Shown piece after piece: positions 8,030 through 45,175 of a stretch of 64,000 nucleotides of DNA (positions are counted from its first letter, which is position 1; each line of letters opens with the position of its first letter). This DNA comes from Alphaproteobacteria bacterium. GTDB taxonomy: Bacteria > Pseudomonadota > Alphaproteobacteria > UBA2966. The notes under the pieces are model-generated. The model made no database searches. It saw only the letters and a list, made by a program, of their open reading frames with translations, and was not told where the DNA came from. The DNA is taken from assembly GCA_965242505.1 (NCBI GenBank), contig OZ251449.1:3598630-3662629 (forward strand), written 5' to 3'. The position numbers were made by a program, and so were the translations under genes.

Positions 8030-8030
8030 G

Positions 8031-8163: not shown

Positions 8164-9246
8164 CTATTCCGCCGCCCGGGCGGGGGCGGGCGCGCCGACG
8201 TCCTTCAGCGGGCCGAGCTCCTTCTCCAGCATCGGCCGGATGTCGGAGGCGAACTTCTCCATCGTGTTCATGGCCTGGACGTGGCTGGAGCCGCCCACCT
8301 GGACGTGGAACATGACGTGGCTCGGCTGGCCGGCGCGGATGTCGGCGGCCAGCCTCTCGGCGATCGTCTCGCAGTCGCCGACCAGCAGGTTGTCGGCCAT
8401 CGTCTCCAGCGGCGGCTCGTCGGGGAACGGGACCTCGGTCATCATGCCGCCGTCCATGACCTCGGCCCGCCGGCGCAGCGCCGACGCCAGCCGCATCTGG
8501 TGACGGGCGTTGTCGACGTAGGCGAGCGCCTCCTCCCGGCTTTCGGCGACGCACAGGAACCGCTGGATGCCGAGCGGCATCGCCGCCGGGTCCCGGCCCT
8601 CCGCCTTCCACGACTCCGCGATCCGCGCCCGCATCCCGGCGATGTATTCCGAGCCCTTCCAGCGCGCCGTGAACATGGGGATCAGGCCGCGCCGCGCCGC
8701 CAGGCGATGGCCGGCCTCGTTGTCGCCGGCGAGCCAGATCTCCGGGACGCCGTTCGCCGGGCGGGCGCTGATGTGGGTCTCGGGCATGGCGTAGTGCCTG
8801 CCCTCGTAGGAGAAGGTGGCGCGCGTGAAGGCGAGGTCGAGGAGGTCGAGGAACTCCTCCAGCATCTCGCGGGCCTCGGCGAGATCGGCGCCGAAGCGCT
8901 CGAACTCGTAGGGCTGGTAGCCGCTGCCGACGCCGAGGACGAGGCGTCCCGAGCTGAGCGCGTCGACCATGCCGATCTCGGCCAGTACGCGGGCCGGGTG
9001 GTAGAGGGGGGTCACGATCACGGCGGTGCCGAGGCGGATGTCGCGCGTGGCCGACGCGCAGGCGGCGGCCATCATCAGCGGCGACGGGCAGACGCAGTAG
9101 TTGGAGAAGTGGTGCTCGGCGAACCAGGCGATGTCGAAACCCAGCCAGTCGGCGTGTTTCACCTGTTCGAGGTGCTCGCGGAAGACCCGTTCGATCGCGA
9201 AGCCCTTCTCGCGATATCCCATCAGGCTGAAATGGCCGAAATCCAT
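8164..9246 (-). CDS. LLM-class (luciferase-like) flavin-dependent oxidoreductase
   Basis: Start MDFGHF (ATG 9246) preceded by GGAGAAAGACG RBS; luciferase-like monooxygenase family sequence. Confidence 0.65.
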   Translation of the reverse strand: MDFGHFSLMGYREKGFAIERVFREHLEQVKHADWLGFDIAWFAEHHFSNYCVCPSPLMMAAACASATRDIRLGTAVIVTPLYHPARVLAEIGMVDALSSGRLVLGVGSGYQPYEFERFGADLAEAREMLEEFLDLLDLAFTRATFSYEGRHYAMPETHISARPANGVPEIWLAGDNEAGHRLAARRGLIPMFTARWKGSEYIAGMRARIAESWKAEGRDPAAMPLGIQRFLCVAESREEALAYVDNARHQMRLASALRRRAEVMDGGMMTEVPFPDEPPLETMADNLLVGDCETIAERLAADIRAGQPSHVMFHVQVGGSSHVQAMNTMEKFASDIRPMLEKELGPLKDVGAPAPARAAE

Positions 9247-9316
9247 CGTCTTTCTCCAGGGTCGCCGCGCCGGGGCCGCCGCGGGCCGCGGGCCCGCCTC
9301 CGGCGCCCGTCCGGCG

Positions 9317-9358
9317 GTCGGGAAAGCGGCGTCAGGTTGCCACAGCGGGGCGGCGTTC
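9317..9358. repeat. 42-bp direct repeat (copy 1 of 3) marking the tandem-duplication unit boundary
   Basis: GGTCGGGAAAGCGGCGTCAGGTTGCCACAGCGGGGCGGCGTT, identical at 11238..11279 and 12835..12876. Confidence 0.85.
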
Positions 9359-9522
9359 GGCAAACGCCCCGAGCTTCCGGTTCTTGCCGCAAATCATCGC
9401 GAAGGATTTGTCCGGGTTGGGGGGTCAGCAGGAGGGCCGGCGTTTTCGTCAGGGTGCGGCGCACCGCACTCGCGCGGGCTGCGCGAGCTCGGTTTCGCGG
9501 CGTTGTGGCCCGGTTCGCTTCG

Positions 9523-10896
9523 TCATGTTCGTATCCCTTCGGCTGTGAGCCTGGCGATGAGCTGCTCCTGCGAGCCCGCGCCCTTCATGGAGTTGCATGC
9601 GCCACAGAGCAGTTGCAGGTTGTCGAGATGGCCACTCCCGCCCCTCGAGCGTGGAATGACGTGATCGACGGTCAGGTTGCGGAACGGGAACAGGATGCGA
9701 CACCCGCTGCACACACCTTCCTGTCGTCCGTAGAGCGAATGTTTGTGCGTCCGATAGTTGGGAAGTTCGCCCAGGTCCGTCCGCGCCGGAACGTCCTCCC
9801 GGTGCGCCACGTCGTTGAACAACGGCCCCCTGTCGTCGCGCAGGCGCTTGAGCACGAGCCGCGCCGCGAGCGGGGACAGATCGATGCCTGACCACTCGCG
9901 ATTGAGCCTGTCGGCCGCCACGAGCGCAGTGGCGCACCCGCAGAAGGGGTCGAGCACCATGTCGCCCTCGTTGCTGCTGGCGCGGATAATGCGGTCGAGC
10001 AAGGCGATGGGCTTCTGGGTCGGATAGCCGGTTGCCTCGCCTTTCTCGGTCACAGGATTAGCCACCCACAGGTCATCGACCGCTCGTCCCTGCTGTTCGT
10101 CCAAGTATCGTTTGAGGACGGGAACATTGCCCGGCGCGGTTTGAATGATCCGGCCCTTTTCGTATTCCGCCATCATCCGCTCGCGTGTCCAGCGCCACAC
10201 CCGAACGATCCCGAGGAATTCGTAAGTCAGATTCGGGCGATCCTTGTTCGGGTTCGCCAGGTTGTCGTGGCGGTAGCGCCGCCCGGTGCCCTCTTCGACG
10301 TAGCGGTAGAACTTCCGCACGTATTCAGGATCATGCGGCTCAAATTGCGGGTTCCAGCAGGGGCTGTCCCCGCGTGTGTAGAACAGTAGGGTGTCATGAC
10401 TGGACGCAAAGCGTGTTGACGCGAGGCCCTTCGCCGTCGTTCGTCGCCACACGATCTCGTTGCGGAAGCGCGGCGCCCCGATGATCGAATCCATCAGCAT
10501 CTTGAGGTAGTGCGATGCGGTCGGGTCGCAGTGCAGGTAAATCGACCCGGACGGCTTGAGCAGGCGGCGCATTTCCAGCAGCCGCACGGCCATCATGATG
10601 AGGTAGGACTTCACTCCCTTCCCGTGGGCGAACCCGGCGGCGTCGATGATGGCGTAGAGCGCGGGCTGCCGGTCGGCTATCTCGCCGTGCCATGCCTCGT
10701 CCACGTCCGAGAGGGTCCAGGTGTCCTTGAACGCAGCCCCGGCGGCTTCGGAGCCGATGGGAGCCGAGTAGTCGCGGTTCGAGTTGAACGGCGGGTCGAG
10801 GTAGATCAGATCCACCGACTCGCTGTTCATGCCCCGCATGACGTCGAGGTTGTCGCCCGTCCACAGCGTCCGGTTGCGCCAGTTCGGATCACTCAC
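9523..10896 (-). CDS. DNA methyltransferase (beta-class, DPPF motif IV then DPFCGCAT motif I) fused to C-terminal HNH endonuclease domain; paralog 1
   Basis: 457-aa ORF; motifs DPPFNSNRDY, TQKP, DPFCGCATALVAA; C-terminal HNH block CSGCRILFPFRNLTVDHVIPRSRGGSGHLDNLQLLCGACNSMKG. Confidence 0.75.
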   Translation of the reverse strand: MSDPNWRNRTLWTGDNLDVMRGMNSESVDLIYLDPPFNSNRDYSAPIGSEAAGAAFKDTWTLSDVDEAWHGEIADRQPALYAIIDAAGFAHGKGVKSYLIMMAVRLLEMRRLLKPSGSIYLHCDPTASHYLKMLMDSIIGAPRFRNEIVWRRTTAKGLASTRFASSHDTLLFYTRGDSPCWNPQFEPHDPEYVRKFYRYVEEGTGRRYRHDNLANPNKDRPNLTYEFLGIVRVWRWTRERMMAEYEKGRIIQTAPGNVPVLKRYLDEQQGRAVDDLWVANPVTEKGEATGYPTQKPIALLDRIIRASSNEGDMVLDPFCGCATALVAADRLNREWSGIDLSPLAARLVLKRLRDDRGPLFNDVAHREDVPARTDLGELPNYRTHKHSLYGRQEGVCSGCRILFPFRNLTVDHVIPRSRGGSGHLDNLQLLCGACNSMKGAGSQEQLIARLTAEGIRT

Positions 10897-11153
10897 TGGA
10901 TTGTCCGCATGATGAATCTCGCTTCAGTTCCAGGTGACTGCGCCATCGCTCCGTCCGCTTCCGGCTGCGTGGCCGCGAAGATGCTACGGTCGAGGGCTTG
11001 CCGGGCATCCTCCCGGATTTCGTCACGCCGCCATATGTCTTCGATACGTTCGATTTCCGCCGGAAGGATGAGCCGTTCACCGATCCGTTCTTCGAGCTCC
11101 GGCTGTTTTCCGCATATGAAAGGAATTGGACCGACCCGCGCACGGTCGGTCAT
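10893..11153 (-). CDS. conserved small hypothetical protein (86 aa) translationally coupled to methyltransferase-HNH gene; paralog 1
   Basis: ORF overlaps the downstream MTase start by 4 nt (ATGA); 83/86 identical to 12490..12750. Confidence 0.45.
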   Translation of the reverse strand: MTDRARVGPIPFICGKQPELEERIGERLILPAEIERIEDIWRRDEIREDARQALDRSIFAATQPEADGAMAQSPGTEARFIMRTIQ

Positions 11154-11237
11154 CTCGTCCGTTCAGGTCCGCGGCCCTTGATCGGTCGGCGCGTCGCTCA
11201 TGGTCCGGGTCTCCCGTGCGCCGCCGCCTCGCCGGCG

Positions 11238-11279
11238 GTCGGGAAAGCGGCGTCAGGTTGCCACAGCGGGGCGGCGTTG
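11238..11279. repeat. 42-bp direct repeat (copy 2 of 3)
   Basis: Identical to 9317..9358. Confidence 0.85.
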
Positions 11280-11296
11280 TGGCCCGGTTCGCTTCG

Positions 11297-12493
11297 TCAT
11301 GTTCGTATCCCTTCGGCCTTGAGCCTGGAGATGAGCTGCTCCTGCGAGCCCGCGCCCTTCATGGAGTTGCATGCGCCACAGAGCAGTTGCAGGTTGTCGA
11401 GATGGCCGCTCCCGCCCCTCGAGCGTGGAATGACGTGATCGACGGTCAGGTTGCGGAACGGGAACAGGATGCGACACCCGCTGCACACACCTTCCTGTCG
11501 TCCGTAGAGTGAATGCTTGTGCGTCCGATAGTTGGGAAGCTCGCCCAGGTCCGTCCGGGTTGGAACGTCCTCCCGGTGCGCCACGTCGTTGAACAACGGC
11601 CCCCTGTCGTCGCGCAGGCGCTTGAGCACGAGCCGCGCCGCGAGCGGGGACAGATCGATGCCTGACCACTCGCGATTGAGCCTGTCGGCCGCCACGAGCG
11701 CAGTGGCGCACCCACAGAAGGGGTCGAGGACGATGTCGCCTTCGCTGGAACTGGCCTTGACGATGCGATCCAGGAGGGCGAGCGGCTTCTGGGTGGGGTA
11801 ACCGACGGCTTCGGGCTGGTTGCCGCGCAGCGCCGGAACGTCCCAATGATCCCTCATCCAGACCAGGGTGTACGGACCTCGTTCGTCTCGATGGATCTCG
11901 ACGTTGGAGAAACCGTACTCGTGACTCAGGCGCGACTTCTCCTTCTGCGGATGGAACCTGTAATCGGGCGTCTTCGCATAGAACAGGATCGTGTCGTGCT
12001 TTCTTCCGAACCGTCGGTTGCTGACGCCTCCCGTTCTGTACAGCCAGACGATTTCGTTCAGGAAGTTCTTGCGCCCGAATACCGCATCCATGAGCGTCTT
12101 GAGATAGTGCGATGCGGTCGGGTCGCAGTGCAGATAGACCGACCCGGACGGCTTGAGCAGGCGGCGCATTTCCAGCAACCGCACGGCCATCATGATGAGG
12201 TAGGACTTCATTCCCTTCCCGTGGGCGGACCCGGCGGCGTCGATGATGGCGTAGAGCGCGGGCTGCCGGTCGGCTATCTCGCCGTGCCATGCCTCGTCCA
12301 CGTCCGAGAGGGTCCAGGTGTCCTTGAACGCAGCCTCGGCGGCTTCGGAGCCGATGGGAGCCGAGTAGTCGCGGTTCGAGTTGAACGGCGGGTCAAGGTA
12401 GATCAGATCCACCGACTCGCTGTTCATGCCCCGCATGACGTCGAGGTTGTCGCCCGTCCACAGCGTCCGGTTGCGCCAGTTCGGGTCACTCAC
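11297..12493 (-). CDS. DNA methyltransferase-HNH endonuclease fusion; paralog 2 with divergent central target-recognition segment
   Basis: 398-aa ORF; N-terminal about 140 aa and C-terminal about 170 aa nearly identical to 9523..10896, while the central about 90-150 aa are unrelated. Confidence 0.75.
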   Translation of the reverse strand: MSDPNWRNRTLWTGDNLDVMRGMNSESVDLIYLDPPFNSNRDYSAPIGSEAAEAAFKDTWTLSDVDEAWHGEIADRQPALYAIIDAAGSAHGKGMKSYLIMMAVRLLEMRRLLKPSGSVYLHCDPTASHYLKTLMDAVFGRKNFLNEIVWLYRTGGVSNRRFGRKHDTILFYAKTPDYRFHPQKEKSRLSHEYGFSNVEIHRDERGPYTLVWMRDHWDVPALRGNQPEAVGYPTQKPLALLDRIVKASSSEGDIVLDPFCGCATALVAADRLNREWSGIDLSPLAARLVLKRLRDDRGPLFNDVAHREDVPTRTDLGELPNYRTHKHSLYGRQEGVCSGCRILFPFRNLTVDHVIPRSRGGSGHLDNLQLLCGACNSMKGAGSQEQLISRLKAEGIRT

Positions 12494-12750
12494 TGGATTG
12501 CCCGCATGATGAATCTCGCTTCAGTTCCAGGTGACTGCGCCATCGCTCCGTCCGCTTCCGGTTGTGTGGCCGCGAAGAGGCTGCGGTCGAGGGCTTGCCG
12601 GGCATCTTCCCGGATTTCGTCGCGCCGCCAAATGTCTTCGATACGTTCGATTTTCGCCGGAAGGATGAGCCGTTCGCCGATCCGTTCTTCGAGCTCCGGC
12701 TGTTTTCCGCATATGAAAGGAATTGGACCGACCCGCGCGCGGTCGGTCAT
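12490..12750 (-). CDS. conserved small hypothetical protein (86 aa); paralog 2
   Basis: Near-identical to 10893..11153; overlaps the MTase start (ATGA). Confidence 0.45.
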   Translation of the reverse strand: MTDRARVGPIPFICGKQPELEERIGERLILPAKIERIEDIWRRDEIREDARQALDRSLFAATQPEADGAMAQSPGTEARFIMRAIQ

Positions 12751-12834
12751 CTCGTCCGTTCAGGTCCGCGGCCCTTGATCGGTGGGCGCGTCGCTCATGG
12801 TCCGGGTCTCCCGTGCGTCGCCGGCTCGCCGACG

Positions 12835-12876
12835 GTCGGGAAAGCGGCGTCAGGTTGCCACAGCGGGGCGGCGTTC
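12835..12876. repeat. 42-bp direct repeat (copy 3 of 3)
   Basis: Identical to 9317..9358; extended similarity to copy 1 through about 12895. Confidence 0.85.
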
Positions 12877-12929
12877 GGCAAACGCCCCGGACTCCCGGTC
12901 GAACCGGCCTGGCGCCTCGTGGAACAGCT

Positions 12930-13080
12930 CTCCTCCCCCCTGGCGTGACCCCCACCCCGACCCTCCCCCTGCAAGGGGGAGGGAGAAGAAGGGGACGCGG
13001 AGGGAGCCGTCGACGCTCCTCCTCCCCTGACCATTCATACTCCTCCCCCCTGACAGGGGGGAGGTCGGGAGGGGGGTGAG
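12930..13080. repeat. REP-like palindromic element cluster
   Basis: GGCGTGACCCCCACCCCGACCCTCCCCCTGCAAGGGGGAGGGAGAAG ... CCCCTGACAGGGGGGAGGTCGGGAGGGGGG. Confidence 0.8.
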
Positions 13081-13223
13081 CGCCGGAGGCCGCCGCGCCC
13101 GCGCCGCCCGTCTCCCGGCTCGGCCGGCCCGCCGGGACGTACACGATATTGACTTATGTGGCGGTCATGAACATTCTCATGACCTTCACAACGGTCAATT
13201 CCGGTCATATGGAGTCCGGTCGC

Positions 13224-13559
13224 ATGGCGAACAGACCGCGCGCCTACTCGCGTCTCACCAGGGAGGCGCTGGTCCTTCTGGGCAAGCAGATCAGGCTCGC
13301 CCGCAAGGGGCGGCGCATGTCCGAACACGATCTCGCCGCCCGGGCCGGTATCGCCAGGAGCACCCTGCAACGCATCGAGAAGGGCGACCCTTCGGTCGAG
13401 ATCGGCCTCGCGCTGGAGGCCGCCACCCTCACGGGCGTCGACCTGTTCGCGCCGGAGGCGACGACGCTGGCGCCGCGGATCGGCCGCGTCGACGACAAGC
13501 TCGCCCTCATGCCGGGCTCGATCCGCAAGACCCGGCGCAAGGTCGACGATGATTTCTGA
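13224..13559 (+). CDS. XRE-family helix-turn-helix transcriptional regulator
   Basis: ATG 13224 preceded by a GGAG RBS; HTH_3-like block (LARKGRRMSEHDLAARAGIARSTLQRIEKGD). Confidence 0.6.
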   Translation: MANRPRAYSRLTREALVLLGKQIRLARKGRRMSEHDLAARAGIARSTLQRIEKGDPSVEIGLALEAATLTGVDLFAPEATTLAPRIGRVDDKLALMPGSIRKTRRKVDDDF

Positions 13560-13664: not shown

Positions 13665-13770
13665 TTTCCCCTGGCGGCGACCCCCACCCCGACCCTCCCC
13701 CTGCCAGGGGGAGGGAGAAGAGGGGGGGAGGGAGAAGGAGGGGGAGGTCGGGAGGGGGGTGGGCGCCGCG
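13665..13770. repeat. REP-like palindromic element
   Basis: Same family modules. Confidence 0.8.
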
Positions 13771-19560: not shown

Positions 19561-19608
19561 AATAGCGCCTTGCCGGGAACAAACAGGGAAACTATATTCG
19601 GGACCGTC

Positions 19609-22419
19609 ATGACCCCGGACGAGTTCATCGCCAAGTGGCGCGCGTCGGAACTGAAGGAGCGCTCGGCCGCGCAGGAGCACTTCATCGACCTGTGCCGGCT
19701 GCTGGACGAGCCGACGCCGGCCGAGGCCGACCCCGCGGGCGAGACCTACTGCTTCGAGCGCGGGGCGCGCAAGGACGCCGGCGGCGACGGCTGGGCCGAC
19801 GTGTGGAAGCGCCACTGCTTCGCCTGGGAGTACAAGGGCCGGCGCGCCGACCTCGACGCCGCCTTCAACCAGCTGCGGCAGTACGCGCTGGCGCTGGAGA
19901 ACCCGCCGCTGCTGATCGTCTCGGACATGGCGCGGTTCCGCATCCGCACCAACTGGACCAACAGCGTGAGCGAAACGCGCGAGTTCGCGCTGGAGGACCT
20001 CGCCGACGCGGCGGTTCGCGAGAAGCTCAAGTGGGCGATGTCGGACCCGGAGCGGCTGCGTCCGGGGGAGAGCCGGCAGGCGCTGACGGAGCGGGCGGCG
20101 TCGGCGTTCGCGGCCCTGGCGCAGTCGTTGCGGGGACGCGGCCACGAGGCGCGCGCGGTGGCGCATTTCGTGAACCGGCTGGTGTTCTGCATGTTCGCGG
20201 AGGACGTGGGGCTGCTGCCCGACAGGATGTTCACGCGGATGCTCGAACACGCGCGGCGGCGGCCCGAAGGCTTCGCGGAGTTGGCGAGCCGCCTGTTCGG
20301 GGCGATGTCCGAAGGCGGCGACGTGGGGTTCGAGACGGTTTCGTGGTTCAACGGCGGCCTGTTCGACGACGACGCGGCGCTGCCGCTGGAGAAGGAGGAG
20401 ATCGAGACGGCGCTCGCGGCGGCGGCGCTGGACTGGTCGGAGATCGACCCGTCGATCCTGGGGACGCTGTTCGAACGCGGGCTGGACCCGGACAAGCGCT
20501 CGCAACTGGGGGCGCACTACACCGACCGCGACAAGATCATGCGGATCGTGGAGCCGGTGATCGTCCGCCCCTGGCTCGCCGAATGGGAGGCGGCGAAGGC
20601 GGAGATCGGGGCGGCGCTGGAGCGGGCGCGGACGCCGCGGCAGGCGGAGCGGAAGCTGCAAGACTTCCTGGGGCGGCTCCGCGCCTTCACGGTGCTGGAC
20701 CCGGCGTGCGGGTCGGGGAACTTCCTCTATCTGGCGCTGCACGCGCTGAAGGACCTGGAGCACCGGGTGCAGCTGGAGGCGGAGGCGCTGGGGCTGCAAC
20801 GGTCGTTCCCCGAGATCGGGCCGGCGAACGTCAAGGGGATCGAGGTCAACGCCTACGCGGCGGAACTGGCGCGGGTGTCGGTGTGGATCGGCGAGATCCA
20901 GTGGATGCGGCGCAACGGGTTCCTCGAGTCGCGCGATCCGATCCTGAAGCCGCTCGACACCATCGAACGCCGCGACGCGATCCTGACGCCGGAGGGCGGG
21001 GAGCCGGACTGGCCGGAGGCCGACGTCGTCATCGGCAACCCGCCGTTCCTGGGTAGTTCACGCATACAGTCGGCGCTGGGGGATGCCTATAAGGAAAATT
21101 TGCATAAGGTCTACAAGAGCCGTGTTCCCGGCGCGGCGGACCTCGTGTGTTACTGGTTCCACAAGGCCGGTGGTTTGGTGGCGCGAGGCGCGATCGCCCG
21201 CGCCGGTCTGGTGGCGACAAACTCGATCCGGGGCGGGCGTAACCGCACCGTGCTCGACCGGATCGTTGAACAGGGCGCCATTTTCGACGCTTGGTCGGAT
21301 GAGCCGTGGGTGGTGGATGGCGCAGCGGTGCGGGTGTCGCTGGTGTGCTTTGCCGGCCGCAGCGAGGCTTCCGAGTATCGTTTGAACGGAATGCTTGCCC
21401 CGGGTATTTCCGCGGACTTGGTGGCTTCTTCATCGCGGGCCTTGGGACGTTCGGCGCGTCGGTTGCGGGCAAACCGAGGGGCCTGCTTCCGGTCAGGGGA
21501 AAAAGGGGGAGCGTTCGATATTTCCGGTCAATTGGCGCGTGAGTGGCTTTGCCTGCCCGCGAACCCGAATGGCAGACCCAATTCCGACGTTCTCCGGCCG
21601 TGGATCAACGGTCTGGACGTAACCCGTCGTCCACTCGATCAATGGATCATCGACTTCGGTTACGAAATGAGCGAAGCCGATGCGGCGCTCTATGAGAAGC
21701 CTTTTGCTCATATCGCAACGCATGTGAAGCCTGCGCGATCACGGAATCGGGTGGGGGCGCTCAAGATGTCCTGGTGGCGGCATCGCCGCTTCGTGGCGGA
21801 GCTCCGTGAGGCTCTGAACGGGTTGACGCGCTACATCGCCACTCCCCGCGTCGCCAAGCATCGGTTGTTCGTCTGGTGCGACGCCCGGATTTCTCCCGAC
21901 TCCGCCTTGACGGTGGTGGCCCGCGACGACGACACGACCTTCGGCATCCTCCACAGCCGCTTTCACGAGGCATGGTCGCTGCGGTTGGGCACTTGGTTGG
22001 GGAAAGGCAACGACCCGCGCTACACCCCCACCACCACTTTCGAGACCTTTCCCTTCCCGGAAGGACTCTCGCCCGATGTTCCCGCCGCCGACTATGCGAA
22101 CGACCCCCGCGCCGCCGCCATCGCCGAGGCCGCCCGTCGTCTGGTGGACTTACGCGACCGCTGGCTGAATCCGCCCGAATGGGTGGAGTGGGTGGACGAA
22201 CCGGTTCCGGGCTACCCCAGGCGCCCCGTCCCCCGCGATGAAGCGGCTGCGAAGGAACTCAGGAAGCGCACCTTGACCAACCTCTACAACGCCCGCCCCC
22301 AATGGCTGGCGGACGCCCACGCCGCCCTCGACGCCGCCGTGGCGGCGGCCTATGGTTGGGATGCGGAAATCGCCGAGGAAGAAGCGCTGCGGGAGCTGCT
22401 GGCGTTGAACTTGAGATAG
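19609..22419 (+). CDS. MmeI-family type IIL restriction-modification enzyme (N-terminal PD-ExK nuclease plus gamma-class N6-adenine methyltransferase plus TRD)
   Basis: N-terminus FIAKWRASELKERSAAQEHFIDLCRLL and (D)...EYK nuclease block match the MmeI architecture; NPPF motif IV; ORF 19570 starts at TTG, and ATG 19609 (MTPDEFIAKW) is the preferred start. Confidence 0.7.
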   Translation: MTPDEFIAKWRASELKERSAAQEHFIDLCRLLDEPTPAEADPAGETYCFERGARKDAGGDGWADVWKRHCFAWEYKGRRADLDAAFNQLRQYALALENPPLLIVSDMARFRIRTNWTNSVSETREFALEDLADAAVREKLKWAMSDPERLRPGESRQALTERAASAFAALAQSLRGRGHEARAVAHFVNRLVFCMFAEDVGLLPDRMFTRMLEHARRRPEGFAELASRLFGAMSEGGDVGFETVSWFNGGLFDDDAALPLEKEEIETALAAAALDWSEIDPSILGTLFERGLDPDKRSQLGAHYTDRDKIMRIVEPVIVRPWLAEWEAAKAEIGAALERARTPRQAERKLQDFLGRLRAFTVLDPACGSGNFLYLALHALKDLEHRVQLEAEALGLQRSFPEIGPANVKGIEVNAYAAELARVSVWIGEIQWMRRNGFLESRDPILKPLDTIERRDAILTPEGGEPDWPEADVVIGNPPFLGSSRIQSALGDAYKENLHKVYKSRVPGAADLVCYWFHKAGGLVARGAIARAGLVATNSIRGGRNRTVLDRIVEQGAIFDAWSDEPWVVDGAAVRVSLVCFAGRSEASEYRLNGMLAPGISADLVASSSRALGRSARRLRANRGACFRSGEKGGAFDISGQLAREWLCLPANPNGRPNSDVLRPWINGLDVTRRPLDQWIIDFGYEMSEADAALYEKPFAHIATHVKPARSRNRVGALKMSWWRHRRFVAELREALNGLTRYIATPRVAKHRLFVWCDARISPDSALTVVARDDDTTFGILHSRFHEAWSLRLGTWLGKGNDPRYTPTTTFETFPFPEGLSPDVPAADYANDPRAAAIAEAARRLVDLRDRWLNPPEWVEWVDEPVPGYPRRPVPRDEAAAKELRKRTLTNLYNARPQWLADAHAALDAAVAAAYGWDAEIAEEEALRELLALNLR

Positions 22420-22449
22420 TGAGACCGTTTGAGAAAGGAGTCGATAACA

Positions 22450-24120
22450 ATGGACAAAGAAAAGAAACGATTTCTGCAACAAGGTAAACTCGATGATCTG
22501 AGACATGATCGCAAGTTGAATGAAATGCTCACGGTATATGAATCCAATATCGGAAAATGGCATAATCATGGAACCTATAGTGTGCTGATCCCAAATCAAA
22601 TAGCCGATCATATTCTTTCCAGTTCTTCTTGGGATTTTCGTCATGGTCAGGGAACTCCGGGAAGGATGATTCGTAATTACGGTCATAACAAATCTGTCAA
22701 ATACCTCCGATACGGTAACGACGATGGTATGGAGCCATTGGTTATTGTTCGACATTTTTCGGGAATCAAAGACGATCATGTGGAGTTAAGTGAAGAATTC
22801 CGTTTGTTGCATAATCTGTATCATGATCGGAAAAAAGATCGATTCATCAAGATCGTTGATGGTGGAGAAGAGCAAGTGGTTGCCTGTGTTAAGCCTGACT
22901 TGATTGAGGTGCGGCTTAAGGAAATTCGACAATTTCTGTCAATAAAAGAAATGTATCTTTCTATGCAATTCGATTATATCGAATACTCCGACTTGTCGCT
23001 CTCTGAAATGAATTTACCTGCAAAAGAAGATGAAGAAAAGAGAGAAGGGGATATGCATTGGTTTTGGAACTGTGGCGAAGATCCTACCAGTACAGATTAC
23101 AAGTCGTTTAGCCGCTTGCTCGGAAAGCGTCTTTATGGTCCTCTGCCCAAATCGAAAAGTGGATTCGATGAGAGTAAGAAAGAATATGAGGAGTTTGTAA
23201 TAGGTATCGATGAAGATGGGAACGAAGTGAAGTTTACGTCGGATCCGGATATGTTGGCCGATTATTTCGGTGCGAACCCAGATGCGCCGAATTATCTTAC
23301 ATCTGTATATTTTAACAAAGAAGTTCTTGATAAATACTATCATCATTCGAGCAGATATACTGTTGAAGATTCTTTGCTTCGATGTGGATCCTTTTGGGTT
23401 CTTTGTATGGACAATCATCATGAAGACAAAGTTTGCGTATGGCTGGGAGACTTAGGGAGGGCCCTTCCGTACAAAGAACAGCTGCACTGGCGGGCGCATA
23501 ATATCATTCCACAAGGTAACATAAGCGAAACCTTTTACCGCAATCAAATTTTGGCAGAACCTATGAATTCAACGAATCCAGAACATGTCTTTCGGAGACA
23601 CTTTCATGATCTCCATGGTTTATGCCAGACTCGACTTGGATGGCCTATCTTCCTTCAGCTGGAACCTGAAGATCGACATCACTTGACGACGATGAGAGTT
23701 CCATCATCCAACGAACAAAGGGAATTCGATGAACTGATCCTCGGACTCACAAAGATACTTATAGATTCTTTGAATGTAAAAGGACTGAGAGGGATTGCGC
23801 CAAACAGAGGAAGGAACAAAAATCCCGGCAGCATCGACACGCTGCAAGAAGCACTGGATGCCATTGGTGTAACAGATTATGATGAACATGTGTCATTTTT
23901 GCGGGATCTTCAAAACCTGAGATCGTCGGGATCGGCGCATAGAAAGGGAAAGAGGTATAGCATGATTTCTGAAAAATTTGGTATGACCGAACACCATCGT
24001 CAGGATGTTTTCAAGACGATACTTGGAAAATCCTGTGATTTTTTGAGTTATTTGATCTGTCTTGTCGAAAGTGGCCGTATCGGCAACAACGATAGCTCCG
24101 GGTCCGCGTCTAGCGCTTGA
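22450..24120 (+). CDS. hypothetical protein, 556 aa, strongly AT-rich ORFan directly downstream of MmeI-like gene
   Basis: ATG 22450 with a consensus AAAGGAG RBS 9 nt upstream; about 38% GC against about 70% in flanks; no recognisable domain. Confidence 0.6.
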   Translation: MDKEKKRFLQQGKLDDLRHDRKLNEMLTVYESNIGKWHNHGTYSVLIPNQIADHILSSSSWDFRHGQGTPGRMIRNYGHNKSVKYLRYGNDDGMEPLVIVRHFSGIKDDHVELSEEFRLLHNLYHDRKKDRFIKIVDGGEEQVVACVKPDLIEVRLKEIRQFLSIKEMYLSMQFDYIEYSDLSLSEMNLPAKEDEEKREGDMHWFWNCGEDPTSTDYKSFSRLLGKRLYGPLPKSKSGFDESKKEYEEFVIGIDEDGNEVKFTSDPDMLADYFGANPDAPNYLTSVYFNKEVLDKYYHHSSRYTVEDSLLRCGSFWVLCMDNHHEDKVCVWLGDLGRALPYKEQLHWRAHNIIPQGNISETFYRNQILAEPMNSTNPEHVFRRHFHDLHGLCQTRLGWPIFLQLEPEDRHHLTTMRVPSSNEQREFDELILGLTKILIDSLNVKGLRGIAPNRGRNKNPGSIDTLQEALDAIGVTDYDEHVSFLRDLQNLRSSGSAHRKGKRYSMISEKFGMTEHHRQDVFKTILGKSCDFLSYLICLVESGRIGNNDSSGSASSA

Positions 24121-31628: not shown

Positions 31629-32597
31629 TCAGTCCGAACGGGGACCGGGTTTCGCGCGTTGACCGGCGCGCGTGTTTCTCTCCCAGAATACGCCGTCTGC
31701 ATACCCCTGGATGGACGGATCGCGCCGCGCGGCGGCGATGCGCTTCAGCGCCCAGCACAGGTATTCGGCGTCGGCGTCGATCCCGCACCAGCGCCGCCCC
31801 AGTTTCTGGGCCACGACGGCGGTGGTGCCGCTGCCGAGGAACGGGTCGAAGACCAGATCCCCTTTCCTCGAACTCGCGAGAACGAGCTTCGCGATCAGCT
31901 TTTCCGGCTTCTGGGTGGGATGGTCGGTGTTTTCCGGCATCGACCAGAACGGAACCGTCACGTCGGTCCAGATGTTCGACGGGTGCGTGAGACGGTAGGC
32001 GCCGGCCTCTTCCCGTTCCCAGCCCTTCGGTTGCCCCTCCGTCCTGTAGGGCGCGAGGACCCGACGCTTCAGCTTCACCGCCCCGACGTCGAAGTGATAC
32101 CGGTTCGACATCGTGCAGAACCAGATGTCCTCCATGTTGTTCTTCCAGTTCGCCTGCGCGCCGCGTCCCTTTTCACGTTCCCAGGTGATCCTGTTCCGAA
32201 CATGGAATCTCGATTCCAGTATGGGCGAGATCAGCATGGAGGTTCGCCAGTCCGCGCACGCATACAGCGTGGCTTCCGGCTTCATCGCCGGAACCAGCGC
32301 ATCGACGACTTCGCGGAACCAGGATACGTAAGCGTCGCTCTCCCTTCTTCGGAACGGATTTCCGTTGAAGTTCCTGGACAGGTTGTAGGGAGGGTCGAGG
32401 ATCAGAAGATCGATGAACGCGGACGGCAGATGTCCCGCCACGTCGAATACGTCTCCCACGACGAGCCGGCCTTCGACGTCCCGCTGGGTTACGGGCGCTC
32501 CCACCCGCAGGAGTTCGGGGCGCAGGCGGGCGATTTCCTCGTCCGTGCACGACAGCGTCCGGTTTCCGGGCGCGCGTTTTCGCATGTGAACTGCCAT
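31629..32597 (-). CDS. type II DNA methyltransferase (beta-class N6A/N4C; DPPY motif IV, FDPFLGSGTT motif I)
   Basis: 322-aa ORF with canonical motifs; forms an M-R operon with 30946..31614. Confidence 0.8.
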   Translation of the reverse strand: MAVHMRKRAPGNRTLSCTDEEIARLRPELLRVGAPVTQRDVEGRLVVGDVFDVAGHLPSAFIDLLILDPPYNLSRNFNGNPFRRRESDAYVSWFREVVDALVPAMKPEATLYACADWRTSMLISPILESRFHVRNRITWEREKGRGAQANWKNNMEDIWFCTMSNRYHFDVGAVKLKRRVLAPYRTEGQPKGWEREEAGAYRLTHPSNIWTDVTVPFWSMPENTDHPTQKPEKLIAKLVLASSRKGDLVFDPFLGSGTTAVVAQKLGRRWCGIDADAEYLCWALKRIAAARRDPSIQGYADGVFWERNTRAGQRAKPGPRSD

Positions 32598-40005: not shown

Positions 40006-40033
40006 TTGACAGTCTCGGCACTCTCATTTAATG
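40006..40033 (+). promoter_or_regulatory. sigma-70-like promoter for IS1595-family transposase
   Basis: TTGACA (40006..40011), 15-16 nt spacer, TTTAAT/TTAATG; followed by an AAGGGGA RBS. Confidence 0.4.
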
Positions 40034-40059
40034 TCCGATTATTTCAAGGGGATATGGAC

Positions 40060-41040
40060 ATGTCGAAGGAAACCCCCAGAAAAGCCTACCGCGAAGGCAT
40101 CAGCATGGTCGAGCTGTTCCGGCGCTGGCCGGACGACGCGACTGCCGAGGCGTGGTTTGTCGCCCGCCGCTGGCCGGAAGGTGGCCACTGCCCGCATTGT
40201 GGCTCGACCGATGTGCAGTCCGGCGCGAAGCATAAGACCATGCCTTACCGCTGCCGGGCGAAGGAATGCGCAAAGCGGTTTTCCGCGAAGACCGGCACGG
40301 TCATGGAAGGCTCAAAGCTTGGCTTCCAAGTCTGGATGATCGCCACTTATCTGCTTTCGACTAGCCTGAAATCGGTTTCGAGCATGAAGCTGCATCGGGA
40401 TTTGAACATCAACCAGCGCAGCGCATGGTTCCTCGCCCATCGGCTGCGGGTCGCCTTGGCTGATCGGGAAGATGTATTCTCTGGCCCGATAGAGGCGGAT
40501 GAGACCTATGTGGGCGGCCGCCGGACCAACATGCCGAAGGCGAAGCGAAAAGAGCAGACAGGCCGCGGCACAGTCGGCAAGACAGCCGTCGTCAGCGTGA
40601 AGGATCGCGCGACAAGTCGTATTCATGTACAAGTCATCCCTTCCACTGATGGCGAAACCCTGCGATCCTTTATCCGCGACCATGCAGGGGAGGGAACCGT
40701 GGTCTACACGGACGGGCGTGGTGGCTACTGCGGGCTGGCGGCCGACTTCAAGCATGAGTCGGTCAATCATTCGGTCGATGAATATGTTCGCGGCATGGCC
40801 CATATGCAGGGCATCAAGAGCTTTTTGGTGATGCTGGATCGGGCGCATAAGGGACCATTCCACAAGTTCTCGCCGAAGTATTTTGACCGGTATGTGCAAA
40901 AAGTCTCTGAGTGCCACAACGCCCGTGACCGGGATATCATCGACATCATGGCGGCCTTCGCGGAAGGCGCGGTTGAGAAGCGTCTCCGCTACCGGGATTT
41001 GATTGCCGACAACAGCCTGCCTTTGGGGGCGCAGTCATGA
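40060..41040 (+). CDS. IS1595-family transposase (zinc-ribbon plus DDE)
   Basis: CPHCGS ... C..C zinc ribbon and an ISXO2-like DDE domain; ATG 40060 (or 40054). Confidence 0.8.
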   Translation: MSKETPRKAYREGISMVELFRRWPDDATAEAWFVARRWPEGGHCPHCGSTDVQSGAKHKTMPYRCRAKECAKRFSAKTGTVMEGSKLGFQVWMIATYLLSTSLKSVSSMKLHRDLNINQRSAWFLAHRLRVALADREDVFSGPIEADETYVGGRRTNMPKAKRKEQTGRGTVGKTAVVSVKDRATSRIHVQVIPSTDGETLRSFIRDHAGEGTVVYTDGRGGYCGLAADFKHESVNHSVDEYVRGMAHMQGIKSFLVMLDRAHKGPFHKFSPKYFDRYVQKVSECHNARDRDIIDIMAAFAEGAVEKRLRYRDLIADNSLPLGAQS

Positions 41041-42434
41041 TCGTGACGGCGGTATCCCCGCATGGAGGACCTACCGAAGAACGACAAGCATTGTCAGCGC
41101 GTTTCGCACCGCGTCTTGTCACCAGTGAGTTCTACTCCCGCAGGGTCGTCTCCTACCAAGGAAACCGTAAGGTGCCGGGCCTCCGGTGGATGAAATACAA
41201 GGAAGGTTTCTCCAGCCAGCTTGTGGCAGAATTGATTGAACAGGAGAATCCGCGCGCGGTTCTCGATCCTTTCGCTGGAATTTGCACAACGCCGCTTATC
41301 GCCGCTGGACAGGGACGCCGAGCAACAGGAATCGAAATCATGCCTGTTGGCGTGTTGGCCGGATCGGCTATTACAGAAGCGGCAAACGGTCTCTCATCGA
41401 GTGATTTCGATGAACATGCTTCTATCTTCTTGCAGTCTGTCAAAACGAAGAAATCTACCTCTGATTTCGCGTTCCCGCATGTGCGGATAACGGAGGGAGC
41501 CTTTTCCGGTGAAACAGAGAGAGAGATTGCCAAGGCAAGGCAATCTCTCTCGGAGATTGATAATGACGGATTGCGCTCACTCTTGGATTTGGCGTGTATG
41601 TCTGTCTTGGAGGAAGCTAGCTACACGCGCAAGGACGGTCAGTATCTCCGTTGGGACCGCAGGGCCAGAAGGTTGCTACGGTCGTCTGTGGATCTGGGTC
41701 CCATCCCCCGATTCTGTGACGCCTTGGAACGGCGGCTTGTGGAGATAGAGGAAGACATTGATTCACTCAAAAAGCAATTCGGGGGCGGAAAACCTAAGCT
41801 GATCATCGGATCATGCCTTGAATTGCTCAAGAGTATACCGGATGGCGAATTCGACATGGTGATTACATCACCGCCCTACGCCAATCGCTACGACTACACC
41901 CGCACATATGCACTAGAACTAGCATGGATGGGATTCGATCAAGGGGATTTTTCAGTGCTTCGCCAACGTATGCTGTCCTCGACGGTGGAAAACAAAACAA
42001 AGAGGGAAATTCTGGCAGGTGCCTATGGAACGGACTGTAGGGTATTTGATCTGGCCGCGCAAATGTATGATGGACAAGGTGCTGTCCATGAGGTGCTAAG
42101 CATTCTTAGGGAGAGAGAAGATGAGTTAAGTAACAAGAATGTACTGAAGCTCATCGAACAGTACTTTTTCGAGATGGCAATCGTCATATCTGAGCTTGGG
42201 CGCATTGTTCGCCCTGGTGGGGTTGTATTCATGGTCAATGACAATGTACAATACCACGGCGAGGAGCTGCCAGTGGATTTCATATTGTCAGATTTTGCCG
42301 AGAATTCTGGCTTTCATTGTGAGAGTATATGGAAGTTGGCCAGAGGCAAGGGGAATTCTAGCCAACAAATGGCTCGTTTCGGTCGCCGTGAACTGCGTAA
42401 ATGTGTTTATAGGTGGGTCCGATCCTATGACTGA
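41037..42434 (+). CDS. DNA methyltransferase (alpha-class N6-adenine/N4-cytosine; motif I LDPFAGICTT, motif IV SPPY)
   Basis: 465-aa ORF whose ATG overlaps the transposase stop (ATGA); about 50% GC. Confidence 0.7.
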   Translation: MIVTAVSPHGGPTEERQALSARFAPRLVTSEFYSRRVVSYQGNRKVPGLRWMKYKEGFSSQLVAELIEQENPRAVLDPFAGICTTPLIAAGQGRRATGIEIMPVGVLAGSAITEAANGLSSSDFDEHASIFLQSVKTKKSTSDFAFPHVRITEGAFSGETEREIAKARQSLSEIDNDGLRSLLDLACMSVLEEASYTRKDGQYLRWDRRARRLLRSSVDLGPIPRFCDALERRLVEIEEDIDSLKKQFGGGKPKLIIGSCLELLKSIPDGEFDMVITSPPYANRYDYTRTYALELAWMGFDQGDFSVLRQRMLSSTVENKTKREILAGAYGTDCRVFDLAAQMYDGQGAVHEVLSILREREDELSNKNVLKLIEQYFFEMAIVISELGRIVRPGGVVFMVNDNVQYHGEELPVDFILSDFAENSGFHCESIWKLARGKGNSSQQMARFGRRELRKCVYRWVRSYD

Positions 42435-43335: not shown

Positions 43336-43556
43336 CATGGAGGGAGCGATGATCGAGAAACCGAAGCTGCAAGAGGTTGAAGTCGTGCATCCCAACTACC
43401 AGCCGAGTAAGGCTGAATTGGAGGAAGATATGCGGGTCGAGGCGGCCTTCGATGAAGCCGTGGCCGCGCTCTCCCAGCCCGTCAACATCCGCTACATCGA
43501 CCGGCCGCGATGAGCGGCCTTCGGCACTTTCCTACATAACCCCCCCTTCAAAGGAA

Positions 43557-44435
43557 GTGGAGCATTCGCCGGTCTTCTCGTTCGGTTCGGTCGAACTGTA
43601 CGAGGCCGACTGTTTCGCGTGGCTTGAAACGCAGCCCGAGAACAGCGTTCACGGCGTGGTCACCGATCCCCCGTACGGACTGGTCGAATACAGTCCGAAG
43701 GAACAGGAAAAGCTCCGCAACGGCCGAGGGGGAGTCTGGAGGCTCCCGCCCTCGTTCGACGGGCATCGAAGGTCGCCCCTGCCCAGATTCACGACGCTGA
43801 CGCGAAGCGACCTGGACGACATGCGGGAGTTCTTCACGCGCTGGGGAAGGCTCCTTCACGAGGTCCTCGTTCCGGGCGCCCACGTCTTCGTCGCGTCGAA
43901 CCCGCTCGTGTGTCATCGCGTGGCGGACGCCTTGTCCGACGCCGGCCTCGAGGCCAGGGGCGCGATCGCGCGCCTCGTCATGACGATGCGCGGCGGCGAC
44001 AGACCCAAGAACGCGCACGACGAGTTTCCCGACGTGACGGTCATGCCGCGTTCCATGTGGGAGCCGTGGCTCCTGTTCCGGAAACCTCTGGAGGGCAGGG
44101 TTCAGGACAATCTGCGGCGCTGGAAGACCGGCGGGTTGAGGCGCGTATCCGGCCGGCGGCCGTTCGGGGACGTCATCGAATCGCATCCGGCGAGGCCCGC
44201 CGAACGAAGCATCGCCCCGCATCCGTCCCTGAAACCGCAATCGTACCTGCGGCGGATCGTCCGCGCGGCGCTGCCGTTCGGAGAGGGTGTCGTGCTCGAT
44301 CCGTTCGCGGGGTCGGGCTCCACGCTCGCCGCGGCTTCCGCCCTGGGGTACCGGGCGATCGGGATCGAGATCGATCCGGAATACGTTCGGGTCGCCGGGG
44401 AAGCCGCGCCGAAACTGTCGGAACTTTCCGTCTGA
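43557..44435 (+). CDS. DNA methyltransferase (beta-class; DPPY motif IV then LDPFAGSGST motif I)
   Basis: 292 aa assuming a GTG start at 43557 after an AAAGGAAG RBS (no in-frame ATG near the N-terminus); second MTase of the island. Confidence 0.7.
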   Translation: MEHSPVFSFGSVELYEADCFAWLETQPENSVHGVVTDPPYGLVEYSPKEQEKLRNGRGGVWRLPPSFDGHRRSPLPRFTTLTRSDLDDMREFFTRWGRLLHEVLVPGAHVFVASNPLVCHRVADALSDAGLEARGAIARLVMTMRGGDRPKNAHDEFPDVTVMPRSMWEPWLLFRKPLEGRVQDNLRRWKTGGLRRVSGRRPFGDVIESHPARPAERSIAPHPSLKPQSYLRRIVRAALPFGEGVVLDPFAGSGSTLAAASALGYRAIGIEIDPEYVRVAGEAAPKLSELSV

Positions 44436-44668: not shown

Positions 44669-45175
44669 ATGGCCTACACGCTCGAAGCGTTCGCCGCCGA
44701 TTGCAAGGCCGCGCTGATCGCGGAACCCGGTCCCGAGGGCCGCGAAAGGATCCGCGGGATGCTGGAACGCGCCTTGACGGACGACGGGTTCATGCGCGCG
44801 CACTTCGGAACCGGCCAGGACTCCGAGCGCAACGTCCTCTACCGGGATCCGGACATGGGTTTCTGCATCGTCGCGCACACCTACGCGGAGGGGACCGCGG
44901 CGGACCCGCACCATCACGGGCCTGCGTGGGCCATCTACGGCCAGGCGGAGGGGATCACGGAGATGACGGACTGGAGGTTGGTGCGGGAACCGGCGGACGG
45001 CGAAGCGGGAAAGGTCGCGGCGGAACGGACCTACACGCTCGAGCCGGGCGACGCCAAGGTCTACAACGAGGGCGACATCCACTCGCCGCGATGGGAGGGG
45101 CCGACCCGCCTGTTGCGGATCGAGGGCCGGGACATGGCCACGGTCCGGCGCGACCCGCTGGAACCGATAGCCTGA
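44669..45175 (+). CDS. cupin-domain protein
   Basis: 168-aa ORF; His-rich metal site (AHTYAEGTAADPHHHGPAWA) in a cupin fold. Confidence 0.5.
   Translation: MAYTLEAFAADCKAALIAEPGPEGRERIRGMLERALTDDGFMRAHFGTGQDSERNVLYRDPDMGFCIVAHTYAEGTAADPHHHGPAWAIYGQAEGITEMTDWRLVREPADGEAGKVAAERTYTLEPGDAKVYNEGDIHSPRWEGPTRLLRIEGRDMATVRRDPLEPIA

Follow-up and report, generated by a model that had tools for sequence, protein, structure and literature searches.

Tandem methyltransferase-HNH fusion genes with exchanged recognition cassettes: a mobile-gene array that may encode single-chain restriction-modification-like enzymes

Introduction

How do two adjacent genes come to have near-identical ends around entirely different centres, and what would their products do? 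The question is raised by a tandem pair of genes in a 64,000-nucleotide (nt) stretch of the genome of an Alphaproteobacteria bacterium (contig OZ251449.1, positions 3,598,630 to 3,662,629; this whole 64-kb stretch is hereafter the window, and coordinates are counted from its first letter). Each gene encodes a DNA methyltransferase fused to an HNH nuclease domain, and the genes at 9523..10896 and 11297..12493 are named MT1 and MT2 throughout. The explanation that accounts best for the observations, and that is judged somewhat more likely than not, is that the pair is a mobile-gene array in which gene conversion has replaced the recognition segment of one copy, and that its products are single-chain restriction-modification (R-M)-like enzymes of two specificities.

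Organization of the Array

All the elements that an earlier note on this DNA had described were recovered from the open reading frame (ORF) list and a repeat scan, within 1 nt of the positions it gave. The features of the array are listed below; lengths of proteins are in amino acids (aa), and two related proteins serve as points of comparison, P0001 (encoded at the sister-genome locus L081) and P0012 (encoded at loci L083 and L084).

9311..9381, no strand: 71-nt copy 1 of the direct repeat, where the array ends on its downstream side, just upstream of a luciferase-like monooxygenase gene
9382..9525, minus strand: post-stop tail of MT1 (30 nt, common with unit 2), then 114 nt of unique sequence
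9523..10896, minus strand: MT1, methyltransferase-HNH fusion of 457 aa, its centre longer than that of MT2 (ORF list, BLASTP, Pfam)
9960..10505, minus strand: central target-recognition segment of MT1, of P0012 type (identity to P0012 91% in aa and 81% in nt) and not related in type to the MT2 centre
10893..11153, minus strand: 86-aa ORF copy 1, whose stop codon overlaps the MT1 start (ORF list)
11232..11299, no strand: duplication junction, in which the MT2 post-stop tail (…GGGCCACAACGCCGC) runs into a truncated 47-nt repeat (11232-11278) with a shared 8-nt microhomology, AACGCCGC
11297..12493, minus strand: MT2, a 398-aa methyltransferase-HNH fusion (ORF list, BLASTP, Pfam)
11726..12109, minus strand: gene-conversion tract in MT2, ~384 nt (aa ~129-256), the target-recognition cassette, of P0001 type (96% identical to the L081 gene; breakpoints mapped)
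12490..12750, minus strand: 86-aa ORF copy 2, whose stop codon overlaps the MT2 start (GTGA) (ORF list)
12751..12828, minus strand: leader of 78 nt that precedes 86-aa ORF copy 2, duplicated in unit 1 at 11154-11231 (4 mismatches over 125 nt of leader plus repeat core)
12829..12899, no strand: 71-nt copy 3 of the direct repeat, at the upstream edge of the array (94% identical to copy 1; otherwise unique in the window), which includes the 42-nt exact core (12834-12875)

Read along the minus strand, unit 2 consists of the 71-nt repeat (12899-12829), the 78-nt leader, the 86-aa ORF, MT2, and the 30-nt tail, and is followed by the truncated 47-nt repeat (11278-11232), the leader, the 86-aa ORF, MT1, the tail, 114 nt of unique sequence, and the second 71-nt repeat (9381-9311). 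The GTG start of each methyltransferase gene is overlapped for 4 nt by the stop codon of the preceding 86-aa ORF. The description of the pair as tandemly duplicated genes for methyltransferase-HNH fusions was borne out by BLASTP, Pfam, and segmental DNA identities, and the protein alignment that the earlier note had proposed returned near-identical ends and a dissimilar, gapped centre, with DNA breakpoints at MT2 nt ~385 and ~768. The two proteins are 71% identical overall (BLASTP), and the DNA identity between the genes is 97.5% over the N-terminal 393 nt, 33% in the centre, and 93% over the C-terminal 510 nt. The centres differ by 59 aa in length, and the shoulders of the divergent part are still ~70% identical, so that the centre is a diverged homologous segment and not unrelated sequence.

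Identical 42-bp direct repeats had been thought to bound each unit. Three identical copies do exist, and exactly three, without a mismatch (at 9316, 11237, and 12834) in the whole window, where none is expected by chance. They are not symmetrical unit boundaries, however, because the outer copies (9311-9381 and 12829-12899) extend to 71 nt at 94% identity and flank the array as a whole, whereas the middle copy is a 47-nt truncation produced at the junction. At this junction between the units, the tail (…CCACAACGCCGC) passes straight into the repeat at the 8-nt AACGCCGC common to both, which is the signature of a microhomology-mediated tandem duplication, although it could also be the outcome of a repeat-mediated duplication followed by a microhomology deletion. 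What was duplicated in tandem is a unit of ~1.6-1.8 kb made up of the leader, the 86-aa ORF (a dndC-like relic, see below), and the methyltransferase-HNH gene. Units 1 and 2 differ by 3-4% throughout their common parts, approximately the divergence of this genome from its closest available relative. The ratio of non-synonymous to synonymous changes per site (pN/pS) between MT1 and MT2 is 0.21 in the N-module and 0.28 in the C-module, indicating that both genes have been kept functional since they separated.

The fraction of guanine plus cytosine (GC) in the array island is 0.62-0.65 against 0.70-0.75 in the flanking DNA, and at third codon positions it is 0.82 in the methyltransferase genes against 0.95 in the neighbouring monooxygenase gene, which marks the island as foreign DNA. 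The insert between the 71-nt repeats measures ~3.5 kb, and within the window the repeats are found only at the array. No tRNA gene lies in the window, and searches for Rfam RNA families, for integration sites in tRNA or tmRNA genes, and for sigma-70 promoters found nothing meaningful. A helix-turn-helix gene at 13149..13559 was considered as a controller protein and discarded, as its PADLOC match is weak (expectation value, E, 0.002-0.007), it lies outside the island, and it is not conserved beside family members. A G/C-rich dispersed palindrome (CCCTCCCCCTGCCAGGGGGAGGG and variants) is present in intergenic DNA at 8058-8080, 12961-12983, 13678-13715, ~44510-44545, and ~45205-45275, that is, at sites that include positions just outside the array and on both sides of a segment that has replaced a lost gene (described below). 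It resembles repeats of the repetitive extragenic palindromic (REP) or bacterial interspersed mosaic element (BIME) type and may mark rearrangement hot spots.

Domain Architecture and Enzyme Class

In Pfam, both proteins carry N6_N4_Mtase (PF01555; E 4e-40 and 7e-41; 138.5 and 141 bits with a cut-off of 26.7) and HNH/HNH_5 (PF01844/PF14279; E ~1e-12; 48 bits with a cut-off of 21.4 and 47 bits with a cut-off of 27.5), and nuclease and methyltransferase domains thus lie in one polypeptide, as in single-chain R-M enzymes. The motifs of MT2 are DPPF (motif IV) at aa 34, DPFCGCAT (motif I) at aa 257, and the HNH signature CxxC..DH..N..CxxCN from aa 337, and MT1 has its DPFCGCAT motif I at aa 316. 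The order is that of the beta class, with motif IV in the N-terminal part, a variable segment in the centre, and motif I, which binds S-adenosylmethionine, in the C-terminal part. Generic Type II and Type III methyltransferase models were the only ones matched in NCBIfam and PADLOC, and the methyltransferase part matches the structures of M.RsrI, CcrM, MboIIA, and Type III Mod proteins, with EcoP15I Mod (6k0w) among the best. The HNH part scores against the HNH models of IscB and Cas9 and is of the PF01844 type that also occurs in group II introns and phages; its residues D352, H353, N367, and N376 are invariant in the family alignment.

In alignments to CcrM, M.RsrI, and MboIIA, the exchanged centre sits between motif VIII and the N-terminal catalytic motifs on one side and motif X/I on the other. 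Beta-class methyltransferases have their target-recognition domain (TRD) between the N-terminal catalytic motifs and motif X/I, and the centre of MT1 and MT2 therefore occupies the position of the TRD. As DPPF favours N6-methyladenine, each copy is probably a beta-class DPPF DNA methyltransferase of the N6-adenine type, to judge from its motifs. An AlphaFold model of MT2, built from a 32-sequence alignment, has a mean predicted local distance difference test (pLDDT) score of 65.6, with values below 50 in the HNH domain (aa 321-382) and in the centre (aa 183-214).

Cassette Conversion and Its Donor

The origin of the MT2 centre is revealed by comparison with L081, a syntenic sister-genome locus that is 94-98% DNA-identical to window positions 38634-49703 and has a single family gene, for P0001, between a 292-aa methylase gene and a major facilitator superfamily (MFS) gene. 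The nucleotide identity of MT2 to the P0001 gene is 76% in the N-terminal frame, 96% in the centre, and 73% in the C-terminal frame. Compared in 24-nt blocks, MT2 follows MT1 at nt 1-384 and 769-1197 and follows P0001 at nt ~385-768 (window ~12109-11726), with 23-24 of 24 positions matching per block in the latter, and the switch is abrupt, reciprocal, and clean. From these reciprocal segment identities and sharp breakpoints, it follows that MT2 is an MT1-type frame with a ~384-nt P0001-type conversion tract. The proposal that the central segments had been exchanged was thus sustained, the pattern of a 96% identical centre in 73-76% identical frames being reversed when MT2 is set against MT1. 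Similarly, the centre of MT1 is 91% identical to that of P0012 in aa and 81% in nt, the whole MT1 ORF is 81% DNA-identical to that of P0012, and this homology runs exactly from start codon to stop codon.

A stretch of ~384 nt that covers the cassette of one copy was overwritten by gene conversion, presumably after the duplication, with a second family member in the same genome as donor. Where the sister genome has the full P0001 gene, all that the window retains of a methyltransferase-HNH gene is its final ~37 nt (…AARLKEEGQRR*), at ~45306-45342 and immediately upstream of the MFS gene, and the remainder of this lost P0001-type gene has been replaced (44441-45305) by a 168-aa cupin-like ORF (44669..45175) between REP-like G/C-rich palindromes. 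The sequence remnant makes it probable that the donor was once present 32 kb away from the array and has since been lost.

An origin of the two centres by rapid point mutation in place after the duplication, with no exchange, could appeal to the ~70% identity that their shoulders have retained. Against it stand a centre in MT2 that is 96% DNA-identical to P0001 and one in MT1 that is 81% identical to P0012 in DNA and 91% in protein, while in neither case do the frames resemble these relatives more closely than the centres do; an abrupt and reciprocal change of identity and the 59-aa difference in length also count against it. Segment identities and breakpoint mapping refute it, and its probability is practically nil. 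Taken together, the anatomy of the array, the tandem duplication, and the cassette conversion can be stated with high confidence.

Breadth of the Family and Recurrence of Arrays

A search with the MT2 protein found at least 8000 proteins at E<=1e-10, and the domains were checked in the top 120, all of which (120/120) have N6_N4_Mtase and HNH in proteins of 389-496 aa. A scan of one genome per species gave at least 586 encoding stretches, the best 80 of which were used for all counts at the level of loci. These 80 loci come from Alpha- and Gammaproteobacteria, Chloroflexota, Acidobacteriota, Poribacteria, Binatia, Bacteroidota, Cyanobacteria, Planctomycetota, Latescibacterota, and a Nitrosopumilus archaeon, and the titles of many of the records suggest symbionts of marine sponges (a habitat read from names only). 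In an alignment of 32 proteins, pairwise identity is 69-93% over the ~145 aa at the N-terminus and the ~170 aa at the C-terminus. The centres sort into many types that are unrelated to one another (median identity 17%), and there is almost no correlation between the identity of two frames and that of their centres (r = 0.20).

Tandem arrays with homogeneous frames and differing cassettes recur independently in three other phyla. A Flammeovirgaceae metagenome-assembled genome (MAG) has four copies with three centre types, a Bacteroidia genome has three copies with three types, and a Dehalococcoidia chromosome has two copies with two types, and the frames are near-identical inside each genome. 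DPPF, DPF[C/A]GCAT, and the full CxxC..DH..N..CxxCN signature are kept in all 41 proteins checked (41/41), which include every copy of every array. Apart from transposases, no conserved partner gene or small upstream ORF was found beside the family in the 80 loci. Short ORFs with a C-module only were tried as a separate architecture and proved to be split or frameshifted methyltransferase-HNH genes. Many database entries of 95-175 aa that appear as stand-alone HNH proteins (L245/L246, L247) are the 3' halves of such genes, often amid transposases (IS66, IS1595) and defence genes (DruA, Mrr).

Carriage by IS1595-Type Transposons

A transposase of the IS1595/ISXO2 type is the only recurrent neighbour of the family and is directly adjacent in 16/80 loci, in 10 of them upstream on the same strand (its stop codon sometimes overlapping the gene start) and in 6 immediately downstream and convergent. 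The DDE_Tnp_IS1595 transposases of these relatives have a zinc ribbon. One case is P0012, for which a 401-kb contig has two genes at a distance of 160 kb (L083/L084). Each gene sits with the transposase and three small ORFs in a 3.5-kb unit, and the two units are identical, without a mismatch. They end in imperfect inverted repeats (GGACATTATATAC…GTGACC and GGGAATTATATAC…GTGACC) and have separate 8-bp target duplications (AATAAAAT and AAATTTTA) and separate flanking genes. Of nine more loci in which the transposase lies upstream, seven have transposase and gene between inverted repeats of 23-55 nt, and four of those seven show clean 8-bp duplications, in hosts of different phyla. The terminal inverted repeats of the relatives begin GGG[G/A]ATTATATAC. 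The combination of an adjacent transposase, inverted repeats, and an 8-bp duplication was found in relatives only (L083/L084, L010, L036, L039, and L040). Inverted repeats, 8-bp duplications, and identical copies together establish the family as cargo of active IS1595-family transposons, and as such it travels between phyla. These ends and the 8-bp duplication presumably fit ISNwi1-like elements, as the ISNwi1/ISPna2 '+' groups of ISfinder have ends GGnnATTAT and an 8-bp direct repeat.

The nearest IS1595 element to the array, at ~39978-43540, has a different cargo. This IS1595/ISXO2-type element of the window (39978-43540) lies between inverted repeats TATGAAGGAAAGTGCCGAA and TATGTAGGAAAGTGCCGAA, and the stop codon of its transposase (40006..41040, plus strand) overlaps a 465-aa ORF (41037..42434, plus strand) with a partial N6_N4_Mtase match, motif I near the N-terminus, and SPPY near aa 278. 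In L081, the matching position is occupied by a different IS1595 element, with a transposase that is 45% identical, a 281-aa SPPY methylase, and a separate 190-aa HNH protein. The small ORFs of the L083/L084 transposon (6368-7015) encode 81, 66, and 52 aa, belong to no known family, and are translationally coupled in the case of the first two, and L039 has ~1.5 kb of extra cargo (7206-8714).

The 86-aa ORF

The two copies of the 86-aa ORF differ by 11 nt (8 synonymous and 3 non-synonymous changes) and 3 aa, which gives a pN/pS of 0.12 in its own frame and a value of ~1 or undefined in the other two; the excess of synonymous changes has p ~0.001 by a binomial estimate made in this analysis. Searches of Pfam, NCBIfam, PADLOC, and PHROGs with the ORF gave no match. 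A single match was obtained among 5.8 billion proteins and five weak ones in an exhaustive HMMER search of 1.84 billion representatives, and all of them are the extreme C-terminal tails of DndC-like PP-loop proteins, at 51-69% identity; the best match belongs to PRK06850 at 3e-26 and to DndC TIGR03183 at 2e-20 (NCBIfam), and one of the DndC-like matches retains the SGGKDS loop. Only residues ~18-71 of the ORF align, stop codons lie upstream, and the PP-loop and the catalytic body are missing. No homologue occurs in the 80 family loci or beside P0001 in the sister genome. The restriction of the matches to C-terminal tails, the upstream stops, and the absence from family loci together identify the ORF as a relic of the 3' end of a dndC-like gene, one that was copied with the methyltransferase gene in the duplication.

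The family assignment that the earlier note had called for thus leads to a DndC-like C-terminal tail, and a dedicated partner of the methyltransferase is not what the ORF represents. Its likeness to DndC/PRK06850 is confined to the extreme C-terminal tail; it differs in lacking the PP-loop and catalytic body, and yet it is under purifying selection as an ORF. It appears to be still translated, perhaps for no purpose other than translational coupling to the overlapped methyltransferase start. A hairpin with an 8-bp stem (GACCGACC-N7-GGTCGGTC) and a T-rich run is conserved at 12726-12748 and 11129-11151 on the minus strand, where it overlaps the first codons of each 86-aa ORF, and could be an attenuator between units or a translational regulator of the ORF. 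In the best homologue of the ORF, a 526-nt contig (L082), the end of a dndC-like gene is followed by the apparent start of a DUF262/GmrSD-type gene (…ELLYSGRFEVP), a layout that suggests a defence-island context for the ancestral dndC-like gene. The idea of the ORF as a transposase remnant was dropped, as no similarity was found.

Comparison With Known Systems

Exchangeable TRDs are familiar from Type III mod alleles and from Type IIG and Type I specificity genes, including the domain movement described in Helicobacter pylori by Furuta and Kobayashi (PMC3467074; PMC3077401) and allelic TRD substitution (PMC2853133). MT1 and MT2 resemble these systems in having a beta-class methyltransferase with conserved N- and C-terminal frames and a variable central recognition domain, and in changing specificity by homologous recombination within the conserved frames between paralogues of the same genome. 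They differ from them in having no Res/helicase partner (no Type III Res/helicase gene was found beside the array) and an HNH domain fused in the same polypeptide instead, in forming a direct tandem array and not alleles or invertible shufflons, and in having no simple-sequence repeats for phase variation. With the Type IIG/IIL/IIC enzymes (MmeI, BpuSI, Eco57I, and TstI), they have in common the presence of nuclease, methyltransferase, and recognition domain in one polypeptide with no separate partner, and a specificity that can be reprogrammed by a change of TRD. The MmeI/BpuSI architecture of an N-terminal PD-(D/E)XK nuclease and a gamma-class methyltransferase is not that of MT1 and MT2, which are beta-class with a C-terminal PF01844 HNH domain and whose restriction activity is putative. 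An MmeI-like single-chain R-M gene, unrelated to MT1 and MT2, is itself present in the window at 19570..22419 on the plus strand (MmeI_N, helicase spacer, methyltransferase, and TRD domains) and is followed at 22429..24120 (plus strand) by a 563-aa ORF that has no Pfam match and lies in an AT-rich island with a GC of 0.40 against ~0.72 for the genome. Two more solitary N6_N4_Mtase genes occur at 31629..32597 (minus strand) and 43377..44435 (plus strand), the second 97.6% identical to its sister-genome counterpart, and the window has at least 6 genes of DNA-methylase type.

Insertion of R-M genes between long direct repeats, and their amplification by way of these repeats, is an established phenomenon (Nobusato, Furuta, and Kobayashi; PMC2853133). 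The anatomy of the array resembles this insertion-amplification pattern of Furuta et al. (PMC2853133): the island has a lower GC, is flanked by 71-nt repeats that are unique in the window, has no mobility gene inside, and shows tandem amplification, its units being separated by a copy of the repeat, and the values found are those of long-target-duplication units, namely repeats of >30 bp, an insert of <20 kb, an atypical GC, and uniqueness of the repeats within the 64-kb window. The difference is that the middle repeat of the array is truncated at a microhomology, which points to illegitimate and not to repeat-mediated duplication. No empty-site locus was found, as the relatives of the flanking monooxygenase in metagenome contigs are <=75% identical and none has the neighbouring genes or the repeat of the window, and exact-protein look-ups of the array-flanking genes found no copies on record. 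Like IS1595 elements that carry passenger genes, the relatives have a transposase immediately before the methyltransferase-HNH gene, and inverted repeats and 8-bp target duplications around the pair; the window array differs in having no adjacent transposase and no such ends. Recognition-domain exchange, mobile R-M genes, and single-chain enzymes are familiar, and what is new is the fusion of a beta-class methyltransferase to HNH, borne by IS1595 and found in cassette-swapping arrays.

Proposed Function and Alternative Explanations

Each protein would bind its own DNA motif through its cassette and methylate that motif, and the tethered HNH domain would cut DNA at or near unmethylated copies of the same motif. 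Each gene would then be a self-contained R-M-like module serving defence, addiction, or both, and the array would provide two specificities. It is very likely that the two genes encode active methylases that differ in specificity. Restriction by a cassette-guided HNH domain is a plausible prediction whose chances fall a little short of even. HNH nucleases of the PF01844 type, known from Cas9, IscB, group II introns, and phages, usually depend on a partner module for targeting. This reliance suggests that the cassette would direct cleavage by the HNH domain, and the retention of an HNH domain by every array copy is what coupling of cleavage in cis to each specificity would lead one to expect.

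Several points weigh against this reading. The known single-chain R-M enzymes combine a gamma-class methyltransferase with an N-terminal PD-(D/E)XK nuclease, and to our knowledge no beta-class methyltransferase with a C-terminal HNH domain has been shown to restrict DNA. Literature searches found no published description of a methyltransferase-HNH fusion or of methylase cargo in IS1595, nor a sponge-symbiont report of either. The AlphaFold model of MT2, with its low scores in the HNH domain and the centre, does not allow the domain arrangement to be read. No transposase or GGnnATTAT-type ends were found at the window array and no significant inverted repeats across 9200-13200. The order of duplication and conversion is itself inferred, and two separate acquisitions followed by homogenisation of the frames are a conceivable alternative to duplication followed by conversion.

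The main rival concerns the role of the HNH domain, which might serve mobility or recombination instead of restriction. The methyltransferases would in that case be orphans, and nicks or cuts by HNH would promote the spread of the gene itself through recombination, cassette conversion, array expansion, or homing, in the way that nucleases borne by other transposons help these to be retained. This would suit a family that is closely linked to transposases and in which gene conversion and array formation are frequent, as well as an HNH domain that scores against the IscB and Cas9 models and a homology between MT1 and P0012 that is bounded by the start and stop codons, the cassette alone moving between paralogues. 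The insertion sites are different in every genome, however, which speaks against site-specific homing, and a DDE transposase, its inverted repeats, and the 8-bp duplications suffice to explain all the mobility documented. In each array, all copies have an intact HNH domain under purifying selection, as expected if cleavage is tied to the specificity of the copy, where a generic helper would need only one. Recognition cassettes that are hypervariable are usual in defence and addiction systems but not in regulatory orphan methylases. A mobility role is accordingly considered unlikely, though far less so than the two alternatives that follow.

A phage origin had also been raised in the earlier note, and the genes would then be prophage remnants, with a methylase that protects phage DNA and an HNH packaging nuclease that acts with terminase. 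The methyltransferase part does match a large phage family, phrog_67 (E 1e-56 to 1e-59), relatives are encoded by 355 viral contigs, and HNH proteins are components of phage packaging machinery according to Kala et al. (2014), as cited in PMC12284385. On the viral contigs L085-L164, relatives of the frame are 35-58% identical, and the majority stop near residue 298; a few distant versions with HNH lie near contig ends, as packaging-associated HNH genes often do. Most viral relatives, however, match only residues ~10-298 and are thus without HNH, the surroundings of the array contain no phage genes for structural proteins, terminase, or integrase, the window has no tRNA genes, and the 80 cellular loci are neighboured by housekeeping genes or transposases, so that a phage-derived enzyme is not favoured and such a history seems highly improbable. 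An assembly artefact, in which two strain alleles of one locus were threaded through shared repeats, deserves mention because the window is probably metagenome-assembled, as are all the relatives, which are MAGs, because the units differ by 3-4% as strains do, and because the flanks have repeats of 42-71 nt in common. Against this stand the novel junction, at which 8 nt of microhomology link the tail to a truncated repeat and which an assembler joining sequences through a repeat would not make, the presence of comparable arrays in chromosome-level assemblies of other phyla, and the intactness and purifying selection of both copies, and the chance that the array is artefactual is accordingly slight. 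The R-M-like explanation set out above thus stays the preferred one.

Significance

A wider reading, offered tentatively, is that methyltransferase-HNH fusions are an unrecognised class of self-contained, transposon-borne R-M enzymes, in which the cassette of a beta-class methyltransferase would also aim the HNH domain, and which IS1595 elements would spread across phyla as cargo for defence or addiction, apparently mostly in marine-sponge microbiomes. Once resident, they would build tandem arrays of several specificities, with frames kept alike by conversion and cassettes imported from other family members. If the HNH domain is aimed by the methylase cassette, the proteins would be compact (~400 aa) modular enzymes that both cut and mark DNA, their specificity would be switched by the swap of a ~130-aa segment, and the dozens of natural cassettes in an almost invariant frame would be a source of new specificities. 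The array also offers a clean case of recognition-domain transfer between paralogues at breakpoint resolution. DNA-methylase and HNH domains have been reported as enriched in the metagenomes of sponge symbionts (PMC12284385), and the carriage of this family by IS1595 across phyla could help to explain that enrichment. If the HNH domain is merely an aid to mobility, the array would be reduced to a well-documented instance of the gene dynamics that are characteristic of R-M systems.

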